Shown here in pieces: positions 11,876 to 32,917 of a stretch of 64,000 bases of DNA. Source of the DNA: a virus; IMG/VR virus record IMGVR_UViG_3300027971_000031, positions 1-64,000 of that record; one strand, given 5' to 3'. Numbering within the stretch: position 1 is the stretch's first letter; the number at the start of each line of letters is the position of its first letter. The position numbers and the translations under genes were made by a program. Below the pieces are notes generated by a model. That model was not told the origin of the DNA, did no database searches, and saw nothing but the letters and a program-made list of their open reading frames with translations.

Positions 11876-12580
11876 TTAATTACCCTTCTTTTTTGTTTTA
11901 ACAATCTCGTCAATAATTCCGTATTCAAGAGCCTCGTCAGCACTCAACCACAAATCACGAGTAGCATCTAAAGTAACTTGTTCGGTAGTTTTACCACAAT
12001 AAGAACCCAACAAATCAAAAAGAATTTTATTGGTTTTTTCCCATTCAATCATATTGATACGAGCATCTTGGATATTACCGTAAGCTCCACCTGATGATTG
12101 GTGTAACATTGTCTTAGAGAAACGTAATGATGAACGTTTACCCTTCGTTCCAGCTCCTAACAACACTGAACCCATTGATGCTGCCATACCTGTATTTACG
12201 GTACGAATGTCACAGGAAATGTATTCCATAACATCGACCATAGATAGACCTGATTTAACACTTCCTCCTGGTGAGTCAATGTGCATTGTGATGTCTGATT
12301 TATCACTTGAGTCCAAGAACATTAATTGTGCTTGTACGATTGTTGACATGTGGTCATCAACAGGACCTGCAACCCACAACAATCTGTCTCTCATTAATCT
12401 TGAGAAGATATCCATTTGAGTCGCCCTCATCTCCCTTTCCTCCAAAATATATGGAGTCATAGATGATTGGATTTGGTGTGAGAAATAATCCAAATGTGAA
12501 GATGGTTTCCCTAAGTGTTTTGTGTAATAAGCTTGAAATTCTTTTCCGTAGTCCATGTTTAATATTTTAGTGTGGTACAA
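11876..12580 (-). CDS. clpP: ATP-dependent Clp protease proteolytic subunit
   Basis: MDIFSRLMRDR, IDSPGGSV, GMAASMG (catalytic Ser), MLHQ, RDLWLSADEALEYGIID. Confidence 0.97.
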   Translation of the reverse strand: MYHTKILNMDYGKEFQAYYTKHLGKPSSHLDYFSHQIQSSMTPYILEEREMRATQMDIFSRLMRDRLLWVAGPVDDHMSTIVQAQLMFLDSSDKSDITMHIDSPGGSVKSGLSMVDVMEYISCDIRTVNTGMAASMGSVLLGAGTKGKRSSLRFSKTMLHQSSGGAYGNIQDARINMIEWEKTNKILFDLLGSYCGKTTEQVTLDATRDLWLSADEALEYGIIDEIVKTKKKGN

Positions 12581-12971: not shown

Positions 12972-13460
12972 TCAATAAACAAAGGATTCTTGATATTCTG
13001 TCCAAGCTTTGTTTAAGGTTGCATTGTCGTTCATGATGGATGGGACATAAGGTTTATGTTTCATAACCATCTTTGCTTCCTCAGGTGTTTTATTACCTTT
13101 TTTCAAGTTACACTTAAAACAACAAGTCACCAAGTTAGTCCATTCATTAAGTCCTCCACGAGATTTAGGAATAACGTGGTCCAAGGTTAATTGTTTGTTT
13201 GAACCGCAATATACACATTCGTAGTTATCTCGTTTATAAATCCTGTTTCGATTAACCTTTGTTGTTTTTCTGTTGAACTTGATATAACTTAATAATCGAA
13301 TGATTAATGGACGCACGTATGTTGTAAATCCAACATTAATTGGATTCTCATCAGATTTTATAATTTCCGCCTTACCCTTATCGACAAGTACGAAACCCCT
13401 CCTTGTTGAAGTTAAGTTCAAAGGAGTGTAGTCATAGTTTAATACTAATACATTACTCAT
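12972..13460 (-). CDS. HNH endonuclease
   Basis: RDNYECVYCG...LTLDHVIPKSRGG...NLVTCCFKCNLKK. Confidence 0.93.
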   Translation of the reverse strand: MSNVLVLNYDYTPLNLTSTRRGFVLVDKGKAEIIKSDENPINVGFTTYVRPLIIRLLSYIKFNRKTTKVNRNRIYKRDNYECVYCGSNKQLTLDHVIPKSRGGLNEWTNLVTCCFKCNLKKGNKTPEEAKMVMKHKPYVPSIMNDNATLNKAWTEYQESFVY

Positions 13461-14169: not shown

Positions 14170-14580
14170 ATGAAAAAAAGAATATATTTGGATGACGTAA
14201 GGACTCCTATTGAAAAAGACAATTGGGTTATTGTTCGTTCTTATGACGAATTTGTTGAGAATATAAATGAAATCGGATTGGAAAACATCGATATGATTTC
14301 TTTGGACCATGATTTGGGTGATACTGCAATGGCAGAATGGCACAAAAATGTATATAAAAATTACGAGTTGAACTACGATAACATCACCGAAAAAACTGGT
14401 ATGGATTGTGCGAAATGGTTGGTTGAGCAATGGATGGATGGGAAACCTGTTGTTGATGTGGTTGTTCACTCTGCAAATGCGATTGGTAGTGGAAATATGA
14501 TGGGTTACATCAACAATTACCGTCATATTGCTCGATTACCTCAAAATTGTATCAGAGTCCGAATCGAGCATACCGTGTAA
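14170..14580 (+). CDS. cyclic-phosphate-processing receiver-domain protein
   Basis: IYLDDVRTP, ISLDHDLG, TGMDCAKWL, VHSANAIG motifs. Confidence 0.8.
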   Translation: MKKRIYLDDVRTPIEKDNWVIVRSYDEFVENINEIGLENIDMISLDHDLGDTAMAEWHKNVYKNYELNYDNITEKTGMDCAKWLVEQWMDGKPVVDVVVHSANAIGSGNMMGYINNYRHIARLPQNCIRVRIEHTV

Positions 14581-14793: not shown

Positions 14794-14867
14794 GGACCCT
14801 TAGCTCAGCTGGTCAGAGCAGGTCACTCATAATGACAAGGTCACAGGTTCAAACCCTGTAGGGTCCA
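14794..14867 (+). tRNA. tRNA with CAT anticodon, probably Ile2 (lysidine type)
   Basis: GGACCCT/AGGGTCC-A acceptor, loop CTCATAA, resembles ileX-type tRNAs. Confidence 0.85.
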
Positions 14868-14872
14868 CAAAA

Positions 14873-15259
14873 ATGAATAACAAAATGAAAATTGCGGTAA
14901 TAGCCCACGATGGTAAAAAGGCAGATATGGTTGCCTTCATTATGAAAAGATTGGAGTTCTTTAAACAAGTTGATGTTATTGCAACTGGAACCACAGGAAA
15001 ACATATTGAACATGCGGGATTAGATGTCCAATGTATGAAGTCAGGACCACTTGGTGGAGACGCTCAAATTGCATCCATGATTGCTGATGGTGAGATATCG
15101 GGTGTAGTATTCTTTATTGACCCGTTGGAAGTTCATCCCCACCAAGTTGATGTAAATATGTTATTAAGGATTTGTAATGTATATAACACACCTTTAGCAA
15201 CCAACTATATGACCGCATCATATATTATTTCAGGATTGGAAAAAAAATTGATAAACTAA
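14873..15259 (+). CDS. mgsA: methylglyoxal synthase
   Basis: IAHDGKK, ATGTTG, SGPLGGDAQI, DPL..HPHQVDV, PLATN motifs. Confidence 0.95.
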   Translation: MNNKMKIAVIAHDGKKADMVAFIMKRLEFFKQVDVIATGTTGKHIEHAGLDVQCMKSGPLGGDAQIASMIADGEISGVVFFIDPLEVHPHQVDVNMLLRICNVYNTPLATNYMTASYIISGLEKKLIN

Positions 15260-15276
15260 AAAAAAAAATAAATAAT

Positions 15277-15537
15277 ATGCCAGATTTTAGTACATACATC
15301 GACATCGAACCGTCAGAATATGTTGACGAGTGTTCAAAGAGTGACATTAAAGAACTGATTGATGAATTGGTTTTTCACGGTTACATTAACAAAAGTGATA
15401 GTTTAATTGACAAAGAGAAAATTAGTTTAATGGAACAGGAGTTCCATGAAAAACTTGACAAACTCAAATTAAAATACTACAACTTATCACCTGATGATGA
15501 AGAAACTTTAAAAAACTTATTTTTAAAATACGTTTAG
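15277..15537 (+). CDS. hypothetical protein
   Basis: ORF track. Confidence 0.6.
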   Translation: MPDFSTYIDIEPSEYVDECSKSDIKELIDELVFHGYINKSDSLIDKEKISLMEQEFHEKLDKLKLKYYNLSPDDEETLKNLFLKYV

Positions 15538-15583
15538 GATTGATTTTTTGACTTTTAGAACTATTTATACTATAATTACAACA

Positions 15584-15667
15584 ATGAAAAATTTGAATAC
15601 ACTTACAGCAACTTTAGCACCGACGAATGGCGGGGATAGAGATATGTGCTCAAGTGTTCAGATTTAA
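15584..15667 (+). CDS. leader peptide 1, MKNLNTLTATLAPTNGGDRDMCSSVQI (putative attenuator uORF)
   Basis: 27-aa ORF after TATTTATA (15562-15569) and TTGACT-N17-TATAAT (15548-15576); codons 3-20 match the tRNAs of the downstream block. Confidence 0.85.
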   Translation: MKNLNTLTATLAPTNGGDRDMCSSVQI

Positions 15668-15726
15668 TCAAAGGTAATAAAGCCAAAAATGATAAACCCT
15701 GAACACAAAATGTTCAGGGTTTTTTG
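15654..15726 (+). promoter_or_regulatory. attenuator 1: anti-terminator plus intrinsic terminator
   Basis: terminator aaaccctgaaca(15694-705)/tgttcagggttt(15711-722) plus T-run; gtgttcag(15654-661) is complementary to ctgaacac(15699-706). Confidence 0.85.
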
Positions 15727-15745
15727 TTTTATAAGGATTTTTTAT

Positions 15746-15767
15746 TATCTTTGTAGTGTTCTTTGAC
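15746..15767 (+). promoter_or_regulatory. Bacteroidetes-type -7 promoter element followed by boxA-like sequence
   Basis: TATCTTTG 15746-53 with TTTG at 15723-26; TGTTCTTTGAC 15757-67. Confidence 0.65.
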
Positions 15768-15785
15768 TTATGAGAAAAATATAAT

Positions 15786-15862
15786 CGAGATGTTGGGGAG
15801 TCAGGTTACCCCGCCTGCTTTGGGAGCAGGAGAACTCGCAAGTTCGAATCTTGCCATCTCGA
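15786..15862 (+). tRNA. tRNA-Pro(TGG)
   Basis: cloverleaf; stem cctgc/gcagg, loop TTTGGGA. Confidence 0.93.
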
Positions 15863-15869
15863 CGATTAC

Positions 15870-15941
15870 GTCTTCTTAGCTCAGTGGTAGAGCACTTGGC
15901 TGTTAACCAAGTGGTCCATGGTTCGAATCCATGAGGGGACG
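15870..15941 (+). tRNA. tRNA-Asn(GTT)
   Basis: cloverleaf; loop CTGTTAA. Confidence 0.93.
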
Positions 15942-15993
15942 CAAAGGGTCTGAGGGAGTCCCTAAAACGGATAAATAACGTGTCCCTCTCCAT

Positions 15994-16069
15994 GCGAGAG
16001 TAGCTCAGTCGGTAGAGCTTCAGTTTACCAAACTGAAAGTCGCCAGTTCGAATCTGGTCTCTCGCTCCA
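15994..16069 (+). tRNA. tRNA-Gly(ACC), unusual A34 anticodon
   Basis: GCGAGAG/CTCTCGC-T-CCA glycine-type acceptor; stem tcagt/actga, loop TTACCAA. Confidence 0.88.
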
Positions 16070-16071
16070 TT

Positions 16072-16146
16072 GCGGGTATCGCCTAGTTGGTTATGGCATC
16101 ACACTTCCAATGTGAAATAGGGTCGGTTCGAGACCGACTACCCGCT
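16072..16146 (+). tRNA. tRNA-Gly(TCC)
   Basis: cloverleaf; loop CTTCCAA, U73. Confidence 0.93.
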
Positions 16147-16148
16147 CA

Positions 16149-16515
16149 ATGAGTAAGAGATACTCAGTAGTTTTGGTACCGTTACTGATAAATGGTATAG
16201 CTGAGGCCTCTAACAGCTTAATAGATGAGGTCGTCGGAAAAAAGGCAAGAACACCATCTTGACCTCCGAGTATATGGTTGACTTTTAAGCGGTAAGACGC
16301 GATGGGTTTTGAATCAGGAAAACTATGAATATCTACTCATCATAATCTCATGGTGGGAAATGTGAGAGTAATCGGTCGAGCTACATTTAGCCGTTAATCA
16401 CAATATTGGTTTGGAAACAGAGGTAGCCGTGACTTTTCCAACCGAGCCAACCAAGCTTACTATGATACGGGTTAATACCTGTGGATTAGAGGTGACGGTC
16501 AGGAAAGACTGACAA
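16149..16515 (+). ncRNA. unassigned structured RNA region between tRNAs
   Basis: no long ORF, raised GC, several hairpins; atgagta (16149) can pair with tactcat (ending 16340). Confidence 0.45.
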
Positions 16516-16519
16516 TTTC

Positions 16520-16595
16520 GGTCTCATGGTTGAATGGCTACAATTCCACCCTGTCACGGTGCGAGGTACGGGTTCGAATCCCGTTGGGACCGCCA
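16520..16595 (+). tRNA. tRNA-Asp(GTC)
   Basis: loop CTGTCAC, G73, encoded CCA. Confidence 0.9.
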
Positions 16596-16600
16596 AAATT

Positions 16601-16674
16601 GCCTCCTTAGCTCAGCTGGCTAGAGCAGATGATTTGTAATCATCAGGTCGTGGGTTCGAATCCCTCAGGAGGCT
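16601..16674 (+). tRNA. tRNA-Thr(TGT)
   Basis: stem gatga/tcatc, loop TTTGTAA. Confidence 0.93.
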
Positions 16675-16691
16675 CAAAAGTTTTTTAATAA

Positions 16692-16781
16692 TATGAAATA
16701 TAACGATTTTAAATTTGAACGAAAAATATGTATTGGGTTTGTTCTCATAATTTTTGGACTTATTATTTTATTAATAAGTTG
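16692..16781 (+). CDS. 29-aa single-TM microprotein
   Basis: MKYNDFKFERKICIGFVLIIFGLIILLIS read by hand. Confidence 0.4.
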
Positions 16782-16797
16782 ACAATACAATTTAAAA

Positions 16798-16872
16798 GGG
16801 GTTAAATGTACCAAGGCTTGGCGAGAAACACTTGCAATGTTTCTGAGGTGGGTTCGATTCCCACTAGCTCCA
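16798..16872 (+). tRNA. tRNA-Ala(TGC)
   Basis: G3:U70 pair, loop CTTGCAA; atypical D-arm. Confidence 0.85.
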
Positions 16873-16884
16873 CAAAATAAAATT

Positions 16885-17232
16885 ATGGCACATCCAAACT
16901 TACACGCAAAAAGTTCTGCAAAGAAATTCGGTGGAAAACCTGAAGATTATATTCATTTACACGAATGGTTGGATGAAACCAAAGGTTGGATTGGTGATTC
17001 ATTACACAGGATGTTCCGACACCATAGTGAAGGAATCTTTGAAATGGAAAAACGATTTGGTCCTGAATTTAAAAATAGTGATGGAAAAATTGTTTATACT
17101 CGTTATGTTGGAGAACAACATGTAAGGGAAGATTGTAATAATTACCTTCCATCCGCAAAAGAATGGATTACCAATATCTCAGAAAATAAACGACCTCAGT
17201 GGATGTTAAGGACCATGAACATAGAAGACTGA
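16885..17232 (+). CDS. DUF6915-like protein
   Basis: MAHPNLHAKSSAKKFGG...HRMFRHHSEGIF...VGEQHVREDC; ATG at 16885 (ORF-track start lies inside tRNA-Ala). Confidence 0.7.
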   Translation: MAHPNLHAKSSAKKFGGKPEDYIHLHEWLDETKGWIGDSLHRMFRHHSEGIFEMEKRFGPEFKNSDGKIVYTRYVGEQHVREDCNNYLPSAKEWITNISENKRPQWMLRTMNIED

Positions 17233-17243
17233 TATTTATTAAC

Positions 17244-17960
17244 ATGAAACAAATTTTAACACCAGAAGAGAAACAATACCTTAGAAGAACATCAAATTAT
17301 CTTCAATCTATGGGTATGAGACAAGGATATATAGAAATAGAGCTTGAACAAGAAGCTGGCTCAATTGATTACGATAATATTGACTGGAAGTATGTAAGTC
17401 ATTTTTCAAATAACTATAGTGCCGATATTCCTGAAGGATTATTACCAATATTAAAAAAAGTTGTTAAGTATGCAGATTCTTTAGACAATTTAAATAATGA
17501 TATTGATAATTTAAGTTATCAAAGAATTGAAATTAGAATCGATTCTTTTCAAAAAGAAATCTCCGTAAACCATGAATTTTTTTATTATGGACGAGGTGAA
17601 GAAAATTCAATTGATTATGACTCTAAAGAAGATATGGAACAATTTGACCGATGGATGGATAATGATTTAAAAGAAGTTGAAGTTCCATCTGACGGTAAAT
17701 TAAGATTAGATTATGATGGTGGTGGTGATTCAGGATATATTCATAACGAATTTCAACCAACGGGAGATGCGGTACCAGCGGGAATTGAAGATTGGTGTTA
17801 CCAACAACTTGAACGTCATTTTGGTGGTTGGGAAATCAATGAAGGTTCTGATGGGTCATTCATATTTGATTTCAAAAATTCAGTCGTTACTTTGAGTCAT
17901 ACATACAACACCGAAGAACATGAAAGTGATACTTTATATGAAGAAAGTTTTGACAAGTAA
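17244..17960 (+). CDS. DUF6878-like protein
   Basis: YDGGGDSG...GGWEINEGSDG motif; ATG 17244 after TATTTATT. Confidence 0.65.
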   Translation: MKQILTPEEKQYLRRTSNYLQSMGMRQGYIEIELEQEAGSIDYDNIDWKYVSHFSNNYSADIPEGLLPILKKVVKYADSLDNLNNDIDNLSYQRIEIRIDSFQKEISVNHEFFYYGRGEENSIDYDSKEDMEQFDRWMDNDLKEVEVPSDGKLRLDYDGGGDSGYIHNEFQPTGDAVPAGIEDWCYQQLERHFGGWEINEGSDGSFIFDFKNSVVTLSHTYNTEEHESDTLYEESFDK

Positions 17961-18010
17961 GTTGTATCTTTAAAAAAAATCAATTATATTTGTACCATAG
18001 TAAAATAAAT

Positions 18011-18098
18011 GCTCGGGTGGTGGAATAGGTAGACACGCCAGACTTAAAATCTTGTGGGCCTTGCGCCCGTGCGGGTTCGATTCCCGCTCCGAGTACCA
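18011..18098 (+). tRNA. tRNA-Leu(TAA)
   Basis: long variable arm, loop CTTAAAA, encoded CCA. Confidence 0.93.
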
Positions 18099-18103
18099 AA
18101 TTT

Positions 18104-18177
18104 GCCCTTGTAGCTCAGCAGGATAGAGCAACGGTTTTCTAAACCGTAGGTCACAGGTTCGAATCCTGTCGGGGGTA
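18104..18177 (+). tRNA. tRNA-Arg(TCT)
   Basis: stem acggt/accgt, loop TTTCTAA. Confidence 0.93.
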
Positions 18178-18180
18178 CAA

Positions 18181-18277
18181 TATATCATATCCTCAGGTAC
18201 CCGTACAGCAGTGAGACGGGCTAAGTTAGATACAATTCCTCGGAGCTGGGAGTAGAATGCCTGTACGATGTGATATA
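18181..18277 (+). ncRNA. unassigned structured RNA (~97 nt)
   Basis: tatatcatatc/gatgtgatata closing stem; caggta/tgcctg and cccgt/acggg inner helices. Confidence 0.6.
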
Positions 18278-18280
18278 AAT

Positions 18281-18361
18281 GCCTTGGTGGTGGAATGGTA
18301 GACACGTATGTCTTAGAAACATATGTCTTATGACGTGAGGGTTCGAGTCCCTCCTAGGGTA
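18281..18361 (+). tRNA. tRNA-Leu(TAG)
   Basis: stem tatgt/acata, loop CTTAGAA, variable arm. Confidence 0.92.
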
Positions 18362-18363
18362 CT

Positions 18364-18519
18364 ATGAAATTGAATATATATGCGGTTATTATTGTCGTGG
18401 TAAATGTTGCGTTTTCTATGTTTATGATGAACAAGTCAAAAACCTATCAAACACGTTTAAACGATACAACAATTCAAAAAGATTCAACATTTGCAACAAA
18501 TTTATTTGACAAAAAGTAA
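18364..18519 (+). CDS. small membrane protein (51 aa)
   Basis: MKLNIYAVIIVVVNVAFSMFMMNK... read by hand. Confidence 0.5.
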   Translation: MKLNIYAVIIVVVNVAFSMFMMNKSKTYQTRLNDTTIQKDSTFATNLFDKK

Positions 18520-18551
18520 ACTTTTCCTATATTAGATATAATTATATAACA

Positions 18552-18653
18552 ATGAGAACAACAATGGTCCATATTTCGTCGTTTAAGCAACAAGAGATTT
18601 GTAGCTGGTATCGCTATGTGGAAAATTGTAGTTCGGAAAATATGGTAAAATAA
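18552..18653 (+). CDS. leader peptide 2, MRTTMVHISSFKQQEICSWYRYVENCSSENMVK (putative attenuator uORF)
   Basis: 33-aa ORF; codons 5-24 match the tRNAs of the downstream block. Confidence 0.85.
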   Translation: MRTTMVHISSFKQQEICSWYRYVENCSSENMVK

Positions 18654-18715
18654 CAAGTTAGAAATAACAATAGGTTAAACCCCGAACTTCTAAAAAAAGT
18701 TTGGGGTTTTTTTTT
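18630..18715 (+). promoter_or_regulatory. attenuator 2: anti-terminator plus intrinsic terminator
   Basis: terminator aaaccccgaactt(18677-689)/aagtttggggttt(18697-709) plus T-run; agttcgg(18630-636) is complementary to ccgaact(18682-688). Confidence 0.85.
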
Positions 18716-18746
18716 ACCCGATGGTGCAGGAATAGAAAAAAGTTTT

Positions 18747-18787
18747 TATCTTTGTACCATCAAACAGAATGAAAGAGTTCTTTGACA
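18747..18787 (+). promoter_or_regulatory. Bacteroidetes-type -7 element and boxA-like sequence
   Basis: TATCTTTG 18747-54; GTTCTTTGACA 18777-87. Confidence 0.65.
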
Positions 18788-18803
18788 TGTTGGAAACCAA
18801 AAT

Positions 18804-18875
18804 AGTCCCTTAGCTCAGTGGTAGAGCCCTTGCCTTACATGCAAGTTGTCGTAGGTTCGAATCCTACAGGGACTA
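18804..18875 (+). tRNA. tRNA-Val(TAC)
   Basis: stem cttgc/gcaag, loop CTTACAT. Confidence 0.93.
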
Positions 18876-18881
18876 CAATTT

Positions 18882-18953
18882 GGCCCGTTCGACTATCGGT
18901 TAGGTCGTCAGGTTTTCATCCTGAAAAGAGGGGTTCGACTCCCCTACGGGCTA
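18882..18953 (+). tRNA. tRNA-Glu(TTC)
   Basis: stem tcagg/cctga, loop TTTTCAT. Confidence 0.93.
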
Positions 18954-19003
18954 CGAAAAAAAGATTTGGTAGATTAAAATATTCTACTTATCTTTGTAAG
19001 ATA

Positions 19004-19138
19004 TTGATAGTGGTTTTTCCCACCCAACGGATGTCGACAATCCAGGGTGGAATTAGAATTCATCACCCTCTGCCGAGGCCTTGTAAAACTCAGGAAGCAG
19101 TTAAGATTGGAGCGAGACGGGTACTCCATCACTATCAA
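19004..19138 (+). ncRNA. unassigned structured RNA (~135 nt)
   Basis: ttgatagtg/cactatcaa closing stem, internal hairpins, own promoter at 18965-18996. Confidence 0.6.
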
Positions 19139-19144
19139 CCACAT

Positions 19145-19230
19145 TTGAATGTAAAGGGTACGTGCCGCAGCGGAATGACATTACGAAACCCTTATCCACT
19201 CCAGTCATTCGGTTTTGGATAAACATTCAA
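19145..19230 (+). ncRNA. unassigned pseudoknot or kissing-loop RNA (~86 nt)
   Basis: ttgaatgt/acattcaa closing stem; aagggt/accctt and atcca/tggat arms; gaatgac(19173-79) complementary to gtcattc(19204-10). Confidence 0.6.
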
Positions 19231-19236
19231 TAATTT

Positions 19237-19309
19237 GGTGTGATAGCTCAGTAGGTAGAGCAATAGACTGAAAATCTATGTGCCGCAAGTTCGATTCTTG
19301 CTCTCACCA
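19237..19309 (+). tRNA. tRNA-Phe(GAA)
   Basis: stem ataga/tctat, loop CTGAAAA. Confidence 0.92.
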
Positions 19310-19314
19310 CAAAT

Positions 19315-19420
19315 AGTCAAGTGGACGTAATGCGGGATGGTACCCAAGTCCCCAACTCTTAGGAGGTAAGGTTGTCTACTCCGTCTTGTACGGTATTCGG
19401 TTCGAGTCCGACCTTGACTA
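19315..19420 (+). ncRNA. tRNA-like element A (no canonical anticodon arm)
   Basis: AGTCAAG/CTTGACT-A acceptor and GTTCGAGT T-loop; middle not tRNA-like. Confidence 0.65.
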
Positions 19421-19467
19421 CTAAAAATAAATTTGGTAGATTAAAATATTACCCATATCTTTGTATT

Positions 19468-19746
19468 ATGAAAAATAAGGAAAATTTAGAATATTGGTTT
19501 TGTAAAATAGGTCCTATTGACAGAAGTGAAATACCTCTTGGTGGTGACGGTCCATTGAGAAGTGCAGTTGAAGGTACGTTTATTGATATGTTTGGAGAAC
19601 AAGCGAAAACCTGTGGTAGTGGTTGGGGATTAAAAGAAGAAATGAAAACAAGATTGGATATCATTTCTTACCTACATATCACAGACCCAAGTGGTGAAAT
19701 GTTAAAACAAATTGATGAAATCTTGAGTAAACGACCAATGATTTAA
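19468..19746 (+). CDS. hypothetical protein
   Basis: ATG 19468 directly after repeated promoter 19432-19463. Confidence 0.65.
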   Translation: MKNKENLEYWFCKIGPIDRSEIPLGGDGPLRSAVEGTFIDMFGEQAKTCGSGWGLKEEMKTRLDIISYLHITDPSGEMLKQIDEILSKRPMI

Positions 19747-19754
19747 AATAAAAT

Positions 19755-19912
19755 AGTCAGGTGGCGGAATTGGTAGACGCTAATGGAGTTATACTATCAA
19801 ACACAAAGGGTGCGGCGTAGATGGGAACTACTACATTATCTCTTGGACGCAAGAGAGCAATATAACCCTAACCATTTGGTATAACATGCAGGTTCGAATC
19901 CTGTCCTGACTA
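19755..19912 (+). ncRNA. tRNA-like element B (expanded central domain)
   Basis: AGTCAGG/CCTGACT-A acceptor, Leu-like D-arm GCGGAATTGGTAGACGC, T-arm GCAGGTTCGAATCCTGT, ~105-nt insert. Confidence 0.75.
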
Positions 19913-19958
19913 CAAAAATAAATTTGGTAGATTAAAATATTCGTTGTATATTTGTGGT

Positions 19959-20162
19959 ATGGAAAATAAAGTATGGCACAAGATTGAAATTGCAATTGAA
20001 GAACAAACCGTCGAGGTTTATCCGACTGACGAATTTGATGGTATCATTATTGAAACCAAAGAATTGGATGGAAAAGGAAGTCCGAGGTTGTACCTTAACA
20101 AAGATGAAATGGAATTTTTGATTATCAAAATGCAAGAAATGATGTCATACGTTAAAGGTTAA
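19959..20162 (+). CDS. hypothetical protein
   Basis: ATG 19959 directly after repeated promoter 19923-19954. Confidence 0.65.
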   Translation: MENKVWHKIEIAIEEQTVEVYPTDEFDGIIIETKELDGKGSPRLYLNKDEMEFLIIKMQEMMSYVKG

Positions 20163-20169
20163 AATAAAT

Positions 20170-20247
20170 AGTCAGGTGGCGGAACGGATAGACGCAACCA
20201 CGTAAGTGGTCAAACCGGTATTACAGGTTCGAATCCTGTCCTGACTA
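20170..20247 (+). ncRNA. tRNA-like element C (anticodon loop replaced by GTAA tetraloop)
   Basis: same acceptor, D- and T-arm as element B; accac-GTAA-gtggt hairpin. Confidence 0.75.
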
Positions 20248-20371
20248 CAAACCTCAGGATTAATTACCCTGAGACTGAGAGGTTCGAAACTCTTGATTGG
20301 TTATAGTGTATGGGGCACGGCAGAACGTAGTAGGGACGCAGGAGTAGGGTTCAAATCCTTATTAATCAGCA

Positions 20372-20531
20372 AATGGTAGTAAAAAAGTGTAGGTTGATAA
20401 ACGTGGAGAGACGTGACACAAGGGTACACACTAAGGATAGGTAGTAATACCCAACTCTCTGATGGTGTGTGAAGCTGGGCCCTTTCGAGGTTGCTAAGGC
20501 GAGATTCCTGATAAATTCAACTACTACTATT
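20372..20531 (+). ncRNA. unassigned structured RNA (~160 nt)
   Basis: aatggtagta/tactactatt closing stem, gttga/tcaac inner helix. Confidence 0.5.
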
Positions 20532-20536
20532 TAAAT

Positions 20537-20610
20537 GGTGGTTATAGCTCAGTAGGTAGAGCAAAGGTTTGTGGTACCTTGTGTCATGGGTTCGATTCCC
20601 ATTAGTCACC
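20537..20610 (+). tRNA. tRNA-His(GTG)
   Basis: G-1:C73, loop TTGTGGT. Confidence 0.92.
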
Positions 20611-20611
20611 C

Positions 20612-20708
20612 AAAGTGTTCACAACGGACAAGGCTTAGGCTCAAAGTATGGGCGAGAACTTACCTATATTCCCTGAGGTGGGTAGCGAGTGGTTGACCAG
20701 AACACTTT
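20612..20708 (+). ncRNA. unassigned structured RNA (~97 nt)
   Basis: aaagtgttc/gaacacttt closing stem around a GC-rich core. Confidence 0.5.
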
Positions 20709-20756
20709 TTTTTCTTATAATGTGGTAGTTTTCCTAACCAACACATATTTATATGT

Positions 20757-21101
20757 ATGGAAAAGAAAAACAAAAGAGGTGGTGGAAATAGATTAGCATA
20801 TGAAAACGGACTTCAACAATATGTTAAATCTATTAGATTGACAAACGAAGAAGTTTTTATTGAAAATTCAACGTATGCGAGACATCACATTAAAAGAAGA
20901 ATTATTGAAGAAAATATGGTTGATTACAAATGTGATGAGTGTGGTAATCTTGGTATTTGGAATAATAATCCATTACCATTAATTTTAGACCACATAAATG
21001 GCATAAATAACGATAACAGATTAGAAAATCTAAGATTCGTTTGTAGTAACTGTGATTCCCAATTACCAACCTATAAGAATAGAAGAGGTAGTAAAGGGTA
21101 A
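20757..21101 (+). CDS. HNH endonuclease inserted in the tRNA array
   Basis: CDECG...LDHINGINNDNRLENLRFVCSNC. Confidence 0.92.
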   Translation: MEKKNKRGGGNRLAYENGLQQYVKSIRLTNEEVFIENSTYARHHIKRRIIEENMVDYKCDECGNLGIWNNNPLPLILDHINGINNDNRLENLRFVCSNCDSQLPTYKNRRGSKG

Positions 21102-21110
21102 AATTAATAC

Positions 21111-21198
21111 GGAGAGATGGCAGAGTTGGTCTATTGCGTCAGACTTGAAATCTGAAGTACTTGCAAGGGTACCGTGGGTTCGAATCCTACTCTCTCCG
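21111..21198 (+). tRNA. tRNA-Ser(TGA)
   Basis: loop CTTGAAA, long variable arm, G73. Confidence 0.93.
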
Positions 21199-21203
21199 CA
21201 CAT

Positions 21204-21275
21204 TGTCACGTAACTCAGCGGTAGAGTTCTTCTCTGATACGGAAGCGGTCATAGGTTCAAATCCTATCGTGACAA
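21204..21275 (+). tRNA. tRNA-Ile(GAT)
   Basis: stem cttct/ggaag, loop CTGATAC. Confidence 0.88.
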
Positions 21276-21281
21276 CACAAT

Positions 21282-21356
21282 GTCTTCGTAGCTCAGCTGG
21301 TTTAGAGCACTAAACTTTTAATTTAGGGGTCACAGGTTCGAACCCTGTCGGGGACA
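21282..21356 (+). tRNA. tRNA-Lys(TTT)
   Basis: stem ctaaa/tttag, loop CTTTTAA. Confidence 0.92.
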
Positions 21357-21362
21357 CTAAAA

Positions 21363-21434
21363 GGTCGGTTGGCTGAGTGGCTTAGGCGGTAGTCTGCAAA
21401 ACTATTTACATAGGTTCAATTCCTATACCGACCT
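21363..21434 (+). tRNA. tRNA-Cys(GCA)
   Basis: loop CTGCAAA, U73. Confidence 0.92.
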
Positions 21435-21442
21435 CAATATAC

Positions 21443-21515
21443 ACGTCTGTAGCTCAGTTGGTAGAGCATTGGTCTCCAAAACCAAGTGTCGGTGGTTCGA
21501 ACCCATCCAGTCGTG
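21443..21515 (+). tRNA. tRNA-Trp(CCA)
   Basis: stem ttggt/accaa, loop CTCCAAA. Confidence 0.92.
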
Positions 21516-21588
21516 CAAGACTAACACAGAATGAATGATACGAGTCCCCAAAGCTCGAAAGGAGTCAGGGTTTTGGTTTAACTTATTT

Positions 21589-21670
21589 GGGAGTGTCGCA
21601 TAGCGGCAATTGCTGCGGATTGTAAACCCGCCCTCATTAGAGTTCATAGGTTCGAGTCCTATCACTCCCA
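21589..21670 (+). tRNA. tRNA-Tyr(GTA)
   Basis: loop TTGTAAA, variable arm. Confidence 0.92.
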
Positions 21671-21676
21671 CTAAAT

Positions 21677-21747
21677 TGTCCTCTCGTATAACGGCAGTAC
21701 ATCTGGTTTTGGTCCAGAGAATTGAGGTTCGAATCCTTGGGGGACAA
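21677..21747 (+). tRNA. tRNA-Gln(TTG)
   Basis: stem tctgg/ccaga, loop TTTTGGT. Confidence 0.92.
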
Positions 21748-21752
21748 CAATT

Positions 21753-21827
21753 GGTTTTGTGGTGTAACGGAGAGCACATGAAGCTACGGACTTCAGAGCG
21801 AGGGTTCGAATCCTTCCAAAACCACCA
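21753..21827 (+). tRNA. tRNA-Arg(ACG)
   Basis: stem tgaag/cttca, loop CTACGGA, encoded CCA. Confidence 0.9.
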
Positions 21828-21828
21828 T

Positions 21829-21903
21829 GGCGATGTAGTTCAGTGGGAGAACACTTGATTCATATCCAAGAAGTCGGAGGTTCAATTCCTCCCATCGCCA
21901 CCA
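21829..21903 (+). tRNA. tRNA-Met(CAT), elongator type
   Basis: GGCGATG/CATCGCC-A-CCA; loop TTCATAT. Confidence 0.85.
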
Positions 21904-21932
21904 CTTTTCCAACTGTCATAGTATTTATATGT

Positions 21933-22406
21933 ATGGAAAAAAGAGTAACACTAACAAAAGAACAATTATTTAAAGTAATACAGTTAAATGAGCAGGAAAA
22001 CAAAAAAGAGACTGTTGATGATGTTGTTGAAGATGGAAATATTGTTGATATGATTTCAATATTACTTCATTCAAGAAGTCAGGCCCATATATTTCATTGG
22101 CAAACAAAATCACAATCATCATTTGCTGAACATATGGCGTTAGGTGGATATTATGAAGAAATTGGAGAATTAATAGACGGAATTGTTGAAGGTTACCAAG
22201 GTAAAAACGATTTGTTAACAGGTTATAAAACGATTAAAATGGTTGATTATAAATCAACAGAACAACTAATAACTTACTTTAAAGGATTAGATGATAATAT
22301 TGAAAAAAATAGAAAGGCGGTCAAAGAATCTTATATTCAAAACCAAATTGATACAATTCAAGAATTAATTTATAGTACATTATATAAATTGAGATTCTTA
22401 AAATAA
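21933..22406 (+). CDS. Dps/ferritin-like protein (DUF5856-like)
   Basis: QAHIFHWQT...FAEHMALGGYYE..IDGIVEGYQG...TLYKLRFLK; ATG 21933 after TATTTATA. Confidence 0.75.
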   Translation: MEKRVTLTKEQLFKVIQLNEQENKKETVDDVVEDGNIVDMISILLHSRSQAHIFHWQTKSQSSFAEHMALGGYYEEIGELIDGIVEGYQGKNDLLTGYKTIKMVDYKSTEQLITYFKGLDDNIEKNRKAVKESYIQNQIDTIQELIYSTLYKLRFLK

Positions 22407-22430
22407 TATTAAAATTCACTATTATTAATA

Positions 22431-22466
22431 ATCCCTCTGAGTTTTAAGTTCAGGGGGATTTTTTTT
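22431..22466 (+). terminator. intrinsic terminator
   Basis: atccctctga/tcagggggat hairpin plus T-run. Confidence 0.75.
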
Positions 22467-22479
22467 ATATTTAAATTAT

Positions 22480-22553
22480 TGGAACGTAGCTCAGTTGGTG
22501 AGAGCAGTTGTCTTATACACAACAGGTCATGGGTTCAACTCCCATCGTTCCAA
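22480..22553 (+). tRNA. tRNA-Ile(TAT), rare anticodon
   Basis: stem gttgt/acaac, loop CTTATAC. Confidence 0.88.
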
Positions 22554-22558
22554 CAACA

Positions 22559-22645
22559 GGAAGGTTACCCAAGTGGTGAAGGGGTCAGTTTGCTAAACTG
22601 ATAGGCTGAGCAATCGGCGCGAGGGTTCGAGCCCCTCACCTTCCG
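22559..22645 (+). tRNA. tRNA-Ser(GCT)
   Basis: stem tcagt/actga, loop TTGCTAA, long variable arm. Confidence 0.93.
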
Positions 22646-22706
22646 CAAAAAAATAATTATTCAAATAATTGACGAATCACGGTTTCTAACTTATATTTAT
22701 TATTCA

Positions 22707-23980: not shown

Positions 23981-24438
23981 TTTCCTAATTTGTCTTTTTC
24001 TGATATTGTAATTTTATTACCTTCACTATGTTGAAAAACTACATTCGACACTGTTGGGTTTTTATACCAAAGCAAACTATGTTCACTTTCGGGGTTATAA
24101 TCACCCTCGACCATGTAAACAACAATTGTATTAGGTTCAAGTGTTAAAAACCCGTGAGCCATCTTATTTGGGACATATACCGCTTGGTTTTCATTAACCT
24201 CACAATAATCAGTTTCACCTGTTTCTAAATCAACCATAAAATCGATAATTGAACCCTGAACTACTTTAACGTATTTTGTCTGTGGTGGATTTGTTTGGTA
24301 ATGTAATCCTCTAAAGGTAAATGGTTCAGCATTGATACTGATTGAACATTGAGTCCAATCAATATCTAATACCTTTGTGTTTATCGGTGTGTAAGACCCC
24401 CTATCGTCTTTAAATGTTTTGTGTTCGTGTTTAATCAT
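23977..24438 (-). CDS. rfbC: dTDP-4-dehydrorhamnose 3,5-epimerase
   Basis: DDRG, RGLHYQ, AHGFLTL, ISEKD motifs. Confidence 0.92.
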   Translation of the reverse strand: MIKHEHKTFKDDRGSYTPINTKVLDIDWTQCSISINAEPFTFRGLHYQTNPPQTKYVKVVQGSIIDFMVDLETGETDYCEVNENQAVYVPNKMAHGFLTLEPNTIVVYMVEGDYNPESEHSLLWYKNPTVSNVVFQHSEGNKITISEKDKLGK

Positions 24439-25006
24439 TTAAAAATTTCAATATTTTATCTTTTATTCCTGTTTGTTTGATGCCTTCATTACCATTTGGA
24501 GTTAATACAAAGTTATCCAATCCCCAATTTTTCCAATCCTCACCATTTTTTCCCATATCAAGGTCATCAACTGCAACCCAATGAGTAACTTCAGGATGGT
24601 CATGCAAGAATTGTTTAATCTCGATAACACGGGTCATTTCCAAATCCCATCGTGGAGACCAAATCCAAGTTTGGTCACTATACCAATCACACTGACCTAA
24701 ATTGGTTGTTAATGCGATTGGTTTCTTAATGATTCCTTTTGATTCATAATATTCTCCCATTTCCTCAACATTTGCCCATCTTTTCCAATCAGATGATACA
24801 ACAATTTCTGCACCTGTTTCTTCCAAAATTTCATTAAGGGTTTGAATGGCTTTTTGATTGAAATTATCAAAACGATATTCAACGGGCATTTCTAATGTGG
24901 TCATAGATAACTTACGACCTCCCCATTTCTTTTGTTTCTTAAAACGATTACCCCACTCTGAAGATAAACAGATTACTCCATCATGGTCCAAAAATATTAC
25001 TTTCAT
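24431..25006 (-). CDS. HAD phosphatase, Swiss-Army-knife RNA-repair-like family
   Basis: IFLDHDGVI, IVVSSDWK, WVAVDDLDM. Confidence 0.8.
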   Translation of the reverse strand: MKVIFLDHDGVICLSSEWGNRFKKQKKWGGRKLSMTTLEMPVEYRFDNFNQKAIQTLNEILEETGAEIVVSSDWKRWANVEEMGEYYESKGIIKKPIALTTNLGQCDWYSDQTWIWSPRWDLEMTRVIEIKQFLHDHPEVTHWVAVDDLDMGKNGEDWKNWGLDNFVLTPNGNEGIKQTGIKDKILKFLND

Positions 25007-26816: not shown

Positions 26817-26871
26817 AACGATAAATATATCGTAATAAAAAAAACCCCATCTTTCGATGAGGTTTTAGTTG

Positions 26872-27269
26872 TGGAGATAGGCGGATTCGAACCGCCGTCT
26901 TGCCCATCTTGACAATAAATGACTACACGCTTAGGTCAAGGTTTTTCATACCTTCCGAAATATCTGAATTCTCACACCGTTCAGTCACGGTGGTAGGACT
27001 TAAGGATGCCCTACACCCTGTTTGTTCCTTTTAAGATAGAAACCACATCTTACAAAGACTTCTGTTCCTGGGTTAATGTCTTTTCGACCCGATGGTTTTT
27101 CCTAATTGCTCAGGCTGTAACCGTAGCATCTTCACGAACTAATCCGATTGCTGCCATTTTGTTTAAAACGTTGCCGTTTAATTTTTATCTCCGTAGATTT
27201 AAGTGATAGGAAACTTCTCACTGCGTGCCACGTATCCCCAACTATGTCAATCGATACCAGTGTACCCCC
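26872..27269 (-). ncRNA. ssrA: tmRNA
   Basis: 5' GGGGGTACACTGGTATCGA; 3' GACGGCGGTTCGAATCCGCCTATCTCCA; G3:U70; internal tag ORF 27175-27110. Confidence 0.92.
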
Positions 27270-30901: not shown

Positions 30902-32917
30902 TTAACGTCCTTTCTTTTGGATAATCACTTCTTCATCCACTACTTTGATGAGATAGGTTTTACCCTCAATCATCTTACCAGTTAGAACTTCTTCAGACAA
31001 TAGGTCTTCGACCTTATCCTGAATAGCTCTTTTCAATGGACGAGCTCCGTACAATTCATCGTACCCAATCTTTGCCAAGTATTCAACCAAAGATTCGTCG
31101 TAAGTAATATTGTACTTCATGTCTACAAGACGAGTCATCAACTTCTTCAATTCGATGTCTGTAATCTTCTTGATGTCTTCTTTACCCAACGAGTTGAATA
31201 CAACTGTATCATCAATACGATTAATGAACTCAGGTGAGAAGAAGTTTTTCATTTCCTTCATCAACAATTGTTTCTTAGCTTCTTCATTACTATATGAATT
31301 ACTTGAGAAACCAATACCTGTTCCAAAGTCTTGTAGTTTCTTAACACCCAAGTTTGATGTCAAGATAATCAAGGTATTCTTGAAGTTAATCTTACGACCC
31401 AAACTGTCGGTTACGTGACCATCATCCAAAATTTGAAGTAGGATGGTGAACACATCTTTGTGAGCCTTTTCAACCTCATCGAATAGGATTACAGAATAAG
31501 GTTTGTTTTTAACTTTCTCAGTTAACAATCCACCTTCTTCATAACCTACGTATCCTGGAGGGGCTCCAACCAATTTAGATACTGTGTGTTTCTCTTGGTA
31601 CTCAGACATGTCGACACGAATAAGAGCATCTTCGGAACCGAACATTTCTTTTGCCAATTGTTTTGCCAAATAGGTCTTACCAACACCTGTTGAACCCAAG
31701 AATACGAACGAACCAATTGGACGATTAGGGTCTTTGATACCCAAACGATTTCTCTTGATTGCTTTTGCAATGGTAACCACTGCATTGTTTTGACCGATAA
31801 CTTTGTCAATCAAAGTTTTGTCCAAGTCCAACAAAGCTTTGGTGTCATCCACACTCATTTTACTTACAGGGATTTTCGTCATGTTTGATACAACATCATA
31901 AACATGTTCCAATAAGATGAGTTGTTTTTCTTTGGACAACTTTTCCTCAAACTTTAACTTTTCTTGGTCCAACTTAACCAACAACTTTTTCTCTTTGTCT
32001 CTAAGTTCTGCCGCTTGTTCGTAGTTTTGTTTTTTAACTACTTCTAATTTTTGAACTTTAATTTCTGCGGCCCTTTTCTTCAACTCCTCAATTGCTTCAG
32101 GAGTCTTTAACTCGGTCTGCATTCTTGCCCCAACCTCATCCAAGATGTCAAACGCTTTATCAGGGAACTCACGGTCCGTGATATAACGGTCTGCCAACTT
32201 AACACAAGTCTCGATTACTTCATCGCTGTAATTCACCTTGTGGAAATCTTCGTATTTGTCACGAACATTCTTAAGGATTTGAATTGTTTCTTCAACTGAT
32301 GATGGTTCAACAATTACCTTTTGGAAACGACGCTCCAATGCCCCATCTTTTTCAATGTTCTTACGGAACTCATCTAATGTAGTTGCTCCGATACATTGAA
32401 CTTCCCCACGTGCCAATGCGGGTTTAAAGATGTTTGAACCGTCCATTGAACCTGAAGAGTTACCTGAACCAACCAAAGTGTGAATCTCATCGATGAATAC
32501 GATGATGTTCGGGTTTGCTTGAAGTTCTTCGATAATCACCTTCATACGTTCCTCAAATTGTCCACGATACTTTGTACCGGCAACTACTGAAGTTAAGTCA
32601 AGATTGACGATACGTTTGTCAACCAAATTACGAGGACAATCACCGTTTACGATTTTAATTGCCAATCCTTCAACTAATGCAGTTTTACCACAACCAGGTT
32701 CTCCAAGGATAATCGGGTTATTTTTCTTTCTACGAGAAAGGATTTGAGCAATCCTCAAGATTTCTCTGTCACGACCAATAACGGGGTCAAGTTTACCTGC
32801 TTCAGCTAGTTTCATTAAATCTCTACTGAAATTGTCTAACACGGGTGTGTTTGATTCTGCAGATGATTTAGTTTTTTTGTTCATCATTTTGTCGTCGTCG
32901 TCCATTAAGTCGTTCAT
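30902..32917 (-). CDS. clpC: ClpC-type AAA+ chaperone lacking the N-terminal Clp-repeat domain
   Basis: two Walker A motifs (GEPGCGKT, GSTGVGKT), UVR-type M-domain (QNYEQAAELRD), GAPPGYVGYEEGG. Confidence 0.92.
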   Translation of the reverse strand: MNDLMDDDDKMMNKKTKSSAESNTPVLDNFSRDLMKLAEAGKLDPVIGRDREILRIAQILSRRKKNNPIILGEPGCGKTALVEGLAIKIVNGDCPRNLVDKRIVNLDLTSVVAGTKYRGQFEERMKVIIEELQANPNIIVFIDEIHTLVGSGNSSGSMDGSNIFKPALARGEVQCIGATTLDEFRKNIEKDGALERRFQKVIVEPSSVEETIQILKNVRDKYEDFHKVNYSDEVIETCVKLADRYITDREFPDKAFDILDEVGARMQTELKTPEAIEELKKRAAEIKVQKLEVVKKQNYEQAAELRDKEKKLLVKLDQEKLKFEEKLSKEKQLILLEHVYDVVSNMTKIPVSKMSVDDTKALLDLDKTLIDKVIGQNNAVVTIAKAIKRNRLGIKDPNRPIGSFVFLGSTGVGKTYLAKQLAKEMFGSEDALIRVDMSEYQEKHTVSKLVGAPPGYVGYEEGGLLTEKVKNKPYSVILFDEVEKAHKDVFTILLQILDDGHVTDSLGRKINFKNTLIILTSNLGVKKLQDFGTGIGFSSNSYSNEEAKKQLLMKEMKNFFSPEFINRIDDTVVFNSLGKEDIKKITDIELKKLMTRLVDMKYNITYDESLVEYLAKIGYDELYGARPLKRAIQDKVEDLLSEEVLTGKMIEGKTYLIKVVDEEVIIQKKGR

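Follow-up and report, generated by a model that had tools for sequence, protein, structure and literature searches.

A candidate second leader-peptide attenuator, matched in codons to the tRNA genes that follow it, in an uncultured phage

Phage tRNA genes are usually seen as constitutive cargo that corrects a mismatch in codon usage or replaces tRNAs destroyed during infection, and, to our knowledge, the control of their expression is largely unknown. The window analyzed here (the whole 64-kb stretch of DNA) is the first part of a 107-kb contig with 32% G+C from an uncultured virus, which is recognized as a phage from the T4-type portal and terminase that it encodes. It carries 27 tRNA genes, every one on the + strand, from 14794 to 22646 (ARAGORN). 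Directly ahead of the second block of these genes lie a short open reading frame (ORF) and an intrinsic terminator, and the question is whether translation of this leader governs transcription of the tRNA genes behind it. A preliminary description had proposed that these parts form a second attenuator (attenuator 2), differently specified from the one ahead of block 1 (attenuator 1) and built to the same design. This proposal is supported by the conservation of the leader frame and its ATG, by compensatory changes in the helices, and by co-variation between leader codons and tRNA block. In the reading that we consider likely, attenuator 2 is ribosome-mediated, and slow decoding of the cognate codons lets more transcription read through into block 2. 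What can be read directly from the sequences is the set of parts and its conservation, the helix covariation, and the leader–block co-variation; that the leader is translated, that the helices compete kinetically, and that tRNA shortage induces read-through are inferences, there being no expression data.

The coordinates of the features are collected in Table 1. Shine–Dalgarno motifs are rare ahead of the genes of this phage (5/96, against a background of 7%), so their absence from the leader is normal for a genome that uses none, and TAnnTTTG boxes lie directly upstream of several gene starts. From these two features a host of the Bacteroidota type is inferred, with which they fit. A sigma-70 reading of the leader promoter, TTGACA-16-TATATT, matched 11/12 positions in a scan and was set aside, relatives showing TTTG-N19-TATCTTTG at that place. 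Since the genome lacks Shine–Dalgarno motifs and relatives show this arrangement, the element is read as a promoter of the Bacteroidota −33/−7 type. No close relative was found in the isolate collection. By portal protein, the nearest isolates (35–38% identity) are Microcystis phage Mel-JY01 and the Flavobacterium ‘immuto’ phages; the ‘immuto’ region that was inspected has 4 tRNAs only. For the DUF6915 protein, used as a marker, every isolate copy is less than 60% identical.

Table 1. Features of attenuator 2 and of the tRNA block behind it (positions in the window).
Feature	Position	Strand	Description	Source
Leader promoter-like element	18505..18535	+	TTTG (18505–08), 19-nt spacer, TATATTAG (18528–35); activity inferred	
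Leader ORF	18552..18653	+	33 codons and TAA, without Shine–Dalgarno	
Region 1	18556..18574	+	Codons 2–8; pairs with region 2 in the MFE fold	
Sensing window	18564..18623	+	Codons 5–24, MVHISSFKQQEICSWYRYVE	
Region 2	18616..18636	+	3′ part AGTTCGG (18630–36) is the antiterminator strand	
Intrinsic terminator	18677..18715	+	Region 3 18677–89, loop 18690–96, region 4 18697–18709, T-run to 18715	
Bacteroidota −7-like box TATCTTTG	18747..18754	+	3′ of the terminator; possible internal promoter of block 2	
boxA-like motif GTTCTTTGACA	18777..18787	+	Just before tRNA-Val; called by motif resemblance	
tRNA block 2	18804..21903	+	Val, Glu, Phe, odd tRNA-like gene, His, Ser(tga), Ile(gat), Lys, Cys, Trp, Tyr, Gln, Arg(acg), Met	ARAGORN, Rfam tRNA
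Next strong terminator, end of block-2 unit	22430..22460	+	−15.4 kcal/mol	

The terminator consists of a 13-bp hairpin of −15.5 kcal/mol followed by nine T and ranks second among the terminator-like sites of the 14 kb scanned. The complementarity first noted between agttcgg (18630–36) and ccgaact (18682–88) is exact: the two are perfect reverse complements, and the second sits in the 5′ arm of the terminator. The MFE fold combines a 1:2 helix (18556–74 with 18616–34, about −25 kcal/mol) with the 3:4 terminator (z = −4.75). When the 3′ arm is removed, the 2:3 pairing AGUUCGG/CCGAACU forms, with −11.3 kcal/mol. This antiterminator has merely 7 bp and spans a 45-nt loop. Under equilibrium folding with ribosome-footprint masks, the terminator was preferred in every scenario and no switching was demonstrated; any switch therefore has to be kinetic, and folding of this kind cannot reveal kinetics. 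No Rfam family reached its threshold in a covariance-model search of 18505–18715 (Trp_leader, His_leader, Thr_leader, Phe_leader, and Leu_leader), and the T-box model gave no match even at E ≤ 1. Near attenuator 1 the best leader match was to Thr_leader, whose score of 25 bits falls short of the threshold of 55.

From these parts a mechanism can be proposed. Transcripts would begin at the leader promoter-like element, and read-through from block 1 may also arrive. Each would carry the 33-codon ORF, in which region 1 (the first codons) can pair with region 2 (the last codons), whose alternative partner is region 3, the 5′ arm of the terminator. A fast ribosome reaching the stop codon, which lies 15 nt past region 2 here, would cover region 2, so that the 3:4 terminator forms and transcription stops at 18715. 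A ribosome slowed anywhere in codons 5 to about 22 would hold region 1 off region 2; the freed AGUUCGG would then pair with the emerging CCGAACU, no terminator would form, and the polymerase would enter the tRNA genes. The input would thus be the decoding speed of exactly the codon families served by the output tRNAs, giving a negative-feedback, supply-on-demand loop that limits itself, since the sensed codons are those that block 2 serves. Possible causes of a shortage are host shut-off, the codon-usage mismatch of a 32% G+C phage, and host anticodon nucleases.

The composition of the leader points to such a sensor. Its 33 residues translate as MRTTMVHISSFKQQEICSWYRYVENCSSENMVK and, as had been stated at the outset, they include no Leu, Ala, Gly, Pro, or Asp, with His, Cys (2), Trp, Tyr (2), and Phe present. 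The accompanying judgement that this is improbable for an ordinary peptide is borne out, the probability of finding none of these five amino acids in 32 residues being 1.7e-5 under the usage of the phage’s own proteome. All of codons 5–24 (20/20) fall within the amino-acid set of block 2, defined by the tRNA genes between the terminators at 18709 and 22430, and they cover 13/13 isotypes. With the same proteome usage, a run of 20 residues wholly within the block-2 set has a probability of about 1e-5; given 20 in-set draws, coverage of all 13 has a probability of 0.0016. Among 548 ATG-ORFs of 20–60 aa in the genome, the leader is the sole one to cover all 13 in one run. Codon 18, AGC, is read by Ser-gct, whose gene lies just beyond the terminator at 22430, as does that of Ile(tat). 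Residues that do not match block 2 are R-T-T at the start, within region 1, and, among the last nine, of which N-C-S-S-E lie in or beside region 2, only two Asn fall outside the set. These off-set residues are attributed to structural constraint from regions 1 and 2; likewise, the conserved M-R/K-T-T start lies in region 1, where pairing would account for its lack of a match to block 2. The block boundaries depend on ARAGORN and on our own terminator heuristic. Between 18709 and 22430, no hairpin of at least −11 kcal/mol in strength was found before a T-run, and small ORFs are scattered among the tRNA genes of the block. A 25-aa ORF before the terminator at 22430 was considered as a third leader and ruled out, being an out-of-frame ORF inside the DUF5856 gene.

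The preliminary description had held that the two attenuators share the order of their parts and little of their sequence. The common order is confirmed: attenuator 1 (15548–15730) likewise folds into a 1:2 helix and a terminator (z = −5.7 vs. −4.75), and its antiterminator GTGTTCAG pairs with CTGAACAC in the terminator at 15694–15722. Leader 1 (15584–15667) has 27 codons, and its codons 3–20 are all (18/18) taken from the eight amino acids of block 1, covering all eight. The scarcity of shared sequence, in contrast, holds for the sensing codons only; over their whole length the two elements align globally with 59% identity. Region 2 and the terminator are clearly homologous modules in the two attenuators (GT.GTTC[A/G]G and AAACCC[C/T]GAAC). 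Judged from this alignment, the two are paralogues that differ mainly in their sensing codons. A third attenuator was seen ahead of a separate Leu-Arg-Leu block in several relatives (L013:11112–11246, L042:5051–5188, and L051:11097–11232); its leader has 22 codons, about 40% Leu and nearly 20% Arg.

Relatives were found through the DUF6915 gene inside block 1, which has matches in 393 IMG/VR contigs, and the best 80 loci were retrieved. Most of these have syntenic tRNA arrays, and 66/80 (67/81 including the window) carry at least one short ORF and strong terminator directly before a tRNA block. The attenuator family occurs widely among viral contigs from the environment, which reach about 326 kb in size. 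The DUF6915 gene itself (16837–17232) is 84–97% identical across the best 80 of these 393 matches, and phages of Streptomyces and Bacillus carry more distant copies. Attenuators of type 2 were aligned as 34 distinct copies. The leader ATG is invariant in 34/34, gaps in the coding part are multiples of 3, and the stop codon lies at or past region 2 in all 34, directly at region 2 in two clades. A second in-frame ATG (18564) was ruled out as the start, conservation being limited to the first.

Both alternative helices leave a trace in the same alignment. In helix 2:3, 94.5% of the cells are paired and 5/7 pairs are compensatory, with GTTCGG/CCGAAC replaced by GTTCAG/CTGAAC and by GTAGTC/GACTAC; slid controls reach 12–55% and no shuffle attains 94.5%. 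Helix 1:2, taken from the fold of the window, has 79% of cells paired and 9/16 pairs compensatory, against 22–42% in slid controls. Both helices were defined on the window’s own sequence, a choice that favors them over slid controls. RNAalifold run on the relatives returned a consensus of the terminator alone and recovered neither 1:2 nor 2:3, and helix 1:2 is therefore the less secure. The arms of non-cognate terminators proved uninformative as a null for the antiterminator, most arms sharing GAAC, and were replaced by pair counts on the alignment. An exact-motif scan of IMG/VR with region 2 and the terminator arm gave 65 stretches and few new leaders; 31 of them gave no leader ORF. Of these 31, six were inspected and proved to be fortuitous hits to unrelated contigs rich in G+C, and in two others a leader was present after all.

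The leader peptide keeps its composition and those stretches that RNA pairing constrains, and its sequence is otherwise poorly conserved. This bears on the notion that the locus acts through a product in trans, either the 33-aa peptide as a micro-protein or the terminated leader of about 170 nt as a small RNA. Such roles have a precedent in rnTrpL/peTrpL of Sinorhizobium (PMC6614838, PMC7298713), and termination after the leader would yield a structured RNA in abundance. A trans-acting product would not predict the match to the adjacent tRNA block; as the main function this is highly improbable, and an added function remains possible.

The regulatory reading is carried further by co-variation between leader and block, for which 54 distinct leader/block pairs with complete blocks were compared. 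Sensing codons that match only their own block number 498, whereas 98 match only another block of the same locus. When blocks were permuted within an attenuator type, p was below 5e-5 in type 2 (n = 28) and equal to 0.002 in type 1. In type 2, the presence of a residue tracks that of its own tRNA for Val (6e-7), Trp, Glu, Lys, Phe, and Gly. Arginine codons are divided in the same way, AGR occurring only with Arg-tct in the block (21:0) and CGN only with Arg-acg (21:0), with p = 4e-12. In independent pairs on supported branches of the DUF6915 tree, with amino acids pooled, the leader follows the block in 11.9 cases vs. 0.4 in the opposite direction (p = 5e-4). The relatives are not independent samples, and kinship was corrected only in this last test, which has a short tree and pooled amino acids. 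Individual loci give a similar picture. Several have a Leu-Arg-Leu block with its own terminator and a leader rich in Leu and Arg (MRTTLLHTLLLDRQGLLRRLMP), and in these split loci Arg and most Leu are gone from the block-1 leader. A locus with a Pro tRNA in its third block has Pro in the third leader and none in leader 1, and where small blocks have no tRNAs for Val, Lys, and Arg, their leaders lack these residues too. Mismatches occur as well: one leader has Trp with no Trp tRNA called, and an identical leader precedes blocks of differing content.

These data also bear on the possibility that there is no regulation at all, the hairpin at 18677–18709 being simply the terminator of block 1, the ORF incidental, and block 2 transcribed only from a promoter at about 18747. 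Several observations are compatible with it. Block 1 has no other strong terminator before this hairpin, which must therefore also end block-1 transcripts; the terminator is always the most stable fold; and in 35/37 type-2 relatives the stretch from the terminator to the first tRNA contains a promoter-like TAnnTTTG box, in 24 of them with TTTG-N18-21 upstream of it. The absence of regulation leaves unexplained why the ATG never varies and the frame is kept, why helices 1:2 and 2:3 show compensatory changes, why the codon composition defies chance, and why that composition co-varies with the block behind the leader and not with the one ahead of it, and we regard it as improbable. Even so, block 2 probably has a promoter of its own, to judge by these motifs, and more TAnnTTTG-type boxes lie within the block. 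Much tRNA transcription may therefore bypass attenuator 2, which, given the box after its terminator, most likely adds inducible read-through to a basal level instead of acting as the sole gate, an arrangement comparable to that of tandem promoters. In 6/27 type-1 attenuators, the first tRNA starts 9–16 nt past the terminator; with no space there for a further promoter, those tRNAs can be reached only through the attenuator.

A boxA-like motif similar to GTTCTTTGACA is present in 30/37 type-2 relatives. In the window, a TATCTTTG box and a GTTCTTTGAC boxA-like motif follow both terminators (15746–15767 and 18747–18787); most relatives have both, in an order that varies by clade. The TATCTTTG box may be an internal promoter, and the boxA-like motif a signal for rrn-style antitermination. 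In having a boxA-like motif and a second promoter-like box ahead of stable-RNA genes, the locus resembles rRNA operons with their tandem promoters and boxA antitermination, but this likeness is one of motifs only, without data on NusB/NusE binding or promoter activity, and the motif order differs between clades.

What the attenuator would respond to depends on the arrangement of its codons. Theory predicts a sharp response for many regulatory codons and a shallow one for single steps (PMC1183508). With one to three codons per amino acid in the sensing window, attenuator 2 should therefore respond weakly to the loss of a single tRNA unless that loss is severe, and sharply to a collective slowing of block-2 codons. 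The same theory, with all 20 codons being regulatory for the block as a whole, lends weight to a different view, namely that the attenuator is real and gauges general translation capacity or the timing of infection without isotype specificity. Any global slowing of elongation, through host shut-off, ribosome damage, or amino-acid starvation, would then open it, and the codon match would let the phage tRNAs close the loop. The adjoining tmRNA, Clp, and RNA-repair genes suggest general translation stress, and the tRNA array of Anabaena is also induced by general translational stress (PMC8421152). Such a gauge has no need of disjoint codon sets, yet the loci keep two or three attenuators and these are edited when single tRNAs move; this explanation is, in our judgement, unlikely. 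Under the preferred reading, a ribosome-mediated attenuator tuned to its own block, the cross-specificity put forward in the preliminary description stands as an untested prediction: attenuator 2 should respond to Trp, His, Lys, and others and attenuator 1 to Pro, Gly, and Asp, since the leader codons of attenuator 2 match its own downstream block and not block 1.

A wider interpretation is offered tentatively, with doubt slightly outweighing belief. It holds that the island is a modular supply-on-demand system with one leader per block, re-edited as tRNAs come, go, or move, in which each leader specifically senses the loss of its own set, for instance when host anticodon nucleases cleave those tRNAs or when the phage causes host tRNAs to decay, and turns on only the matching block in response. 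If true, this would be a counter-defence coupled to a sensor, and no earlier example is known of tRNA genes governed through translation of the codons they read.

Attenuator 2 resembles the attenuators of amino-acid operons (trpL, hisL, leuL, and pheL, and the multivalent thr and ilvGMEDA/ilvBN) in a short ORF inferred to be translated, in the helices 2:3 and 3:4 and, less securely, 1:2, in regulatory codons upstream of region 2, and in a stop placed where a terminating ribosome masks region 2. Those attenuators control biosynthetic enzymes, whereas attenuator 2 would control tRNA genes and a few interspersed small ORFs; their leaders contain runs of one to three amino acids, while leader 2 has one to three codons for each of 13. 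Unlike them, attenuator 2 is phage-encoded, lacks a Shine–Dalgarno sequence, and has Bacteroidota-like promoters and a second promoter-like box past the terminator. With the T-box riboswitch it shares a cis-acting terminator/antiterminator switch that reports on the tRNA pool and controls genes of translation supply. The T-box, however, binds one uncharged tRNA directly, through a specifier codon and the T-box loop, with no translation involved, whereas attenuator 2 has a conserved ORF, inferred to be translated, and would sense 13 isotypes together.

The nearest published case is the trn array of Anabaena PCC 7120, which has in common horizontally mobile extra tRNA genes, RNA-repair genes nearby, and expression when translation is impaired (PMC8421152). 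That array is silent until translation is impaired, and its control lies at the promoter, where the TrcR repressor acts on direct repeats (PMC8421152; PMC10272220); the paper on the array mentions no leader ORF, attenuator, or terminator (PMC8421152). No account of leader peptides controlling tRNA genes came up in the full-text searches of the literature. If the reading given here is true, a codon-mirroring attenuator would be a direct read-out of the decoding capacity that its block restores, classical trp/his logic would be reused for stable-RNA genes, and the family would offer a natural set of multi-amino-acid sensors of translation speed with swappable specificity. The question of why phages carry tRNAs would become testable as the question of which shortages open which attenuator.

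Several further features of the neighborhood were observed. The phage encodes a tmRNA (26869–27269, − strand; Rfam, 80 bits, full length), ClpP (11876–12580, −), and a ClpB/ClpC-like ATPase (30902–32917, −), together with a cREC_REC (cyclic-phosphate-processing receiver) protein (14170–14580, +) and a protein with a HAD_SAK_2 ‘Swiss Army Knife RNA repair’ domain (24431–25006, −). The tmRNA, Clp, and RNA-repair-associated genes around the tRNA island fit a role in sustaining translation during infection. Two HNH endonuclease ORFs are present (12972–13460, −; 20757–21101, +), the latter within block 2, and are reminiscent of the homing endonucleases that other phages have in their tRNA regions. 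The last ORF of block 2 (21843–22406), which the terminator at 22430–22460 ends, encodes a DUF5856 protein and matches phrog_858 (‘starvation-inducible transcriptional regulator’). Two tRNA-like genes, at 19755–19912 and 20170–20248, have no normal anticodon loop; one of them is called tRNA-??? by ARAGORN, with a 2-nt ‘anticodon’, and the other matches the Rfam tRNA model with a large insert. Finally, the tRNA-Gly gene at 15994–16069 has the anticodon ACC, where a nearly identical relative (L001) has GCC, a G34-to-A34 difference.
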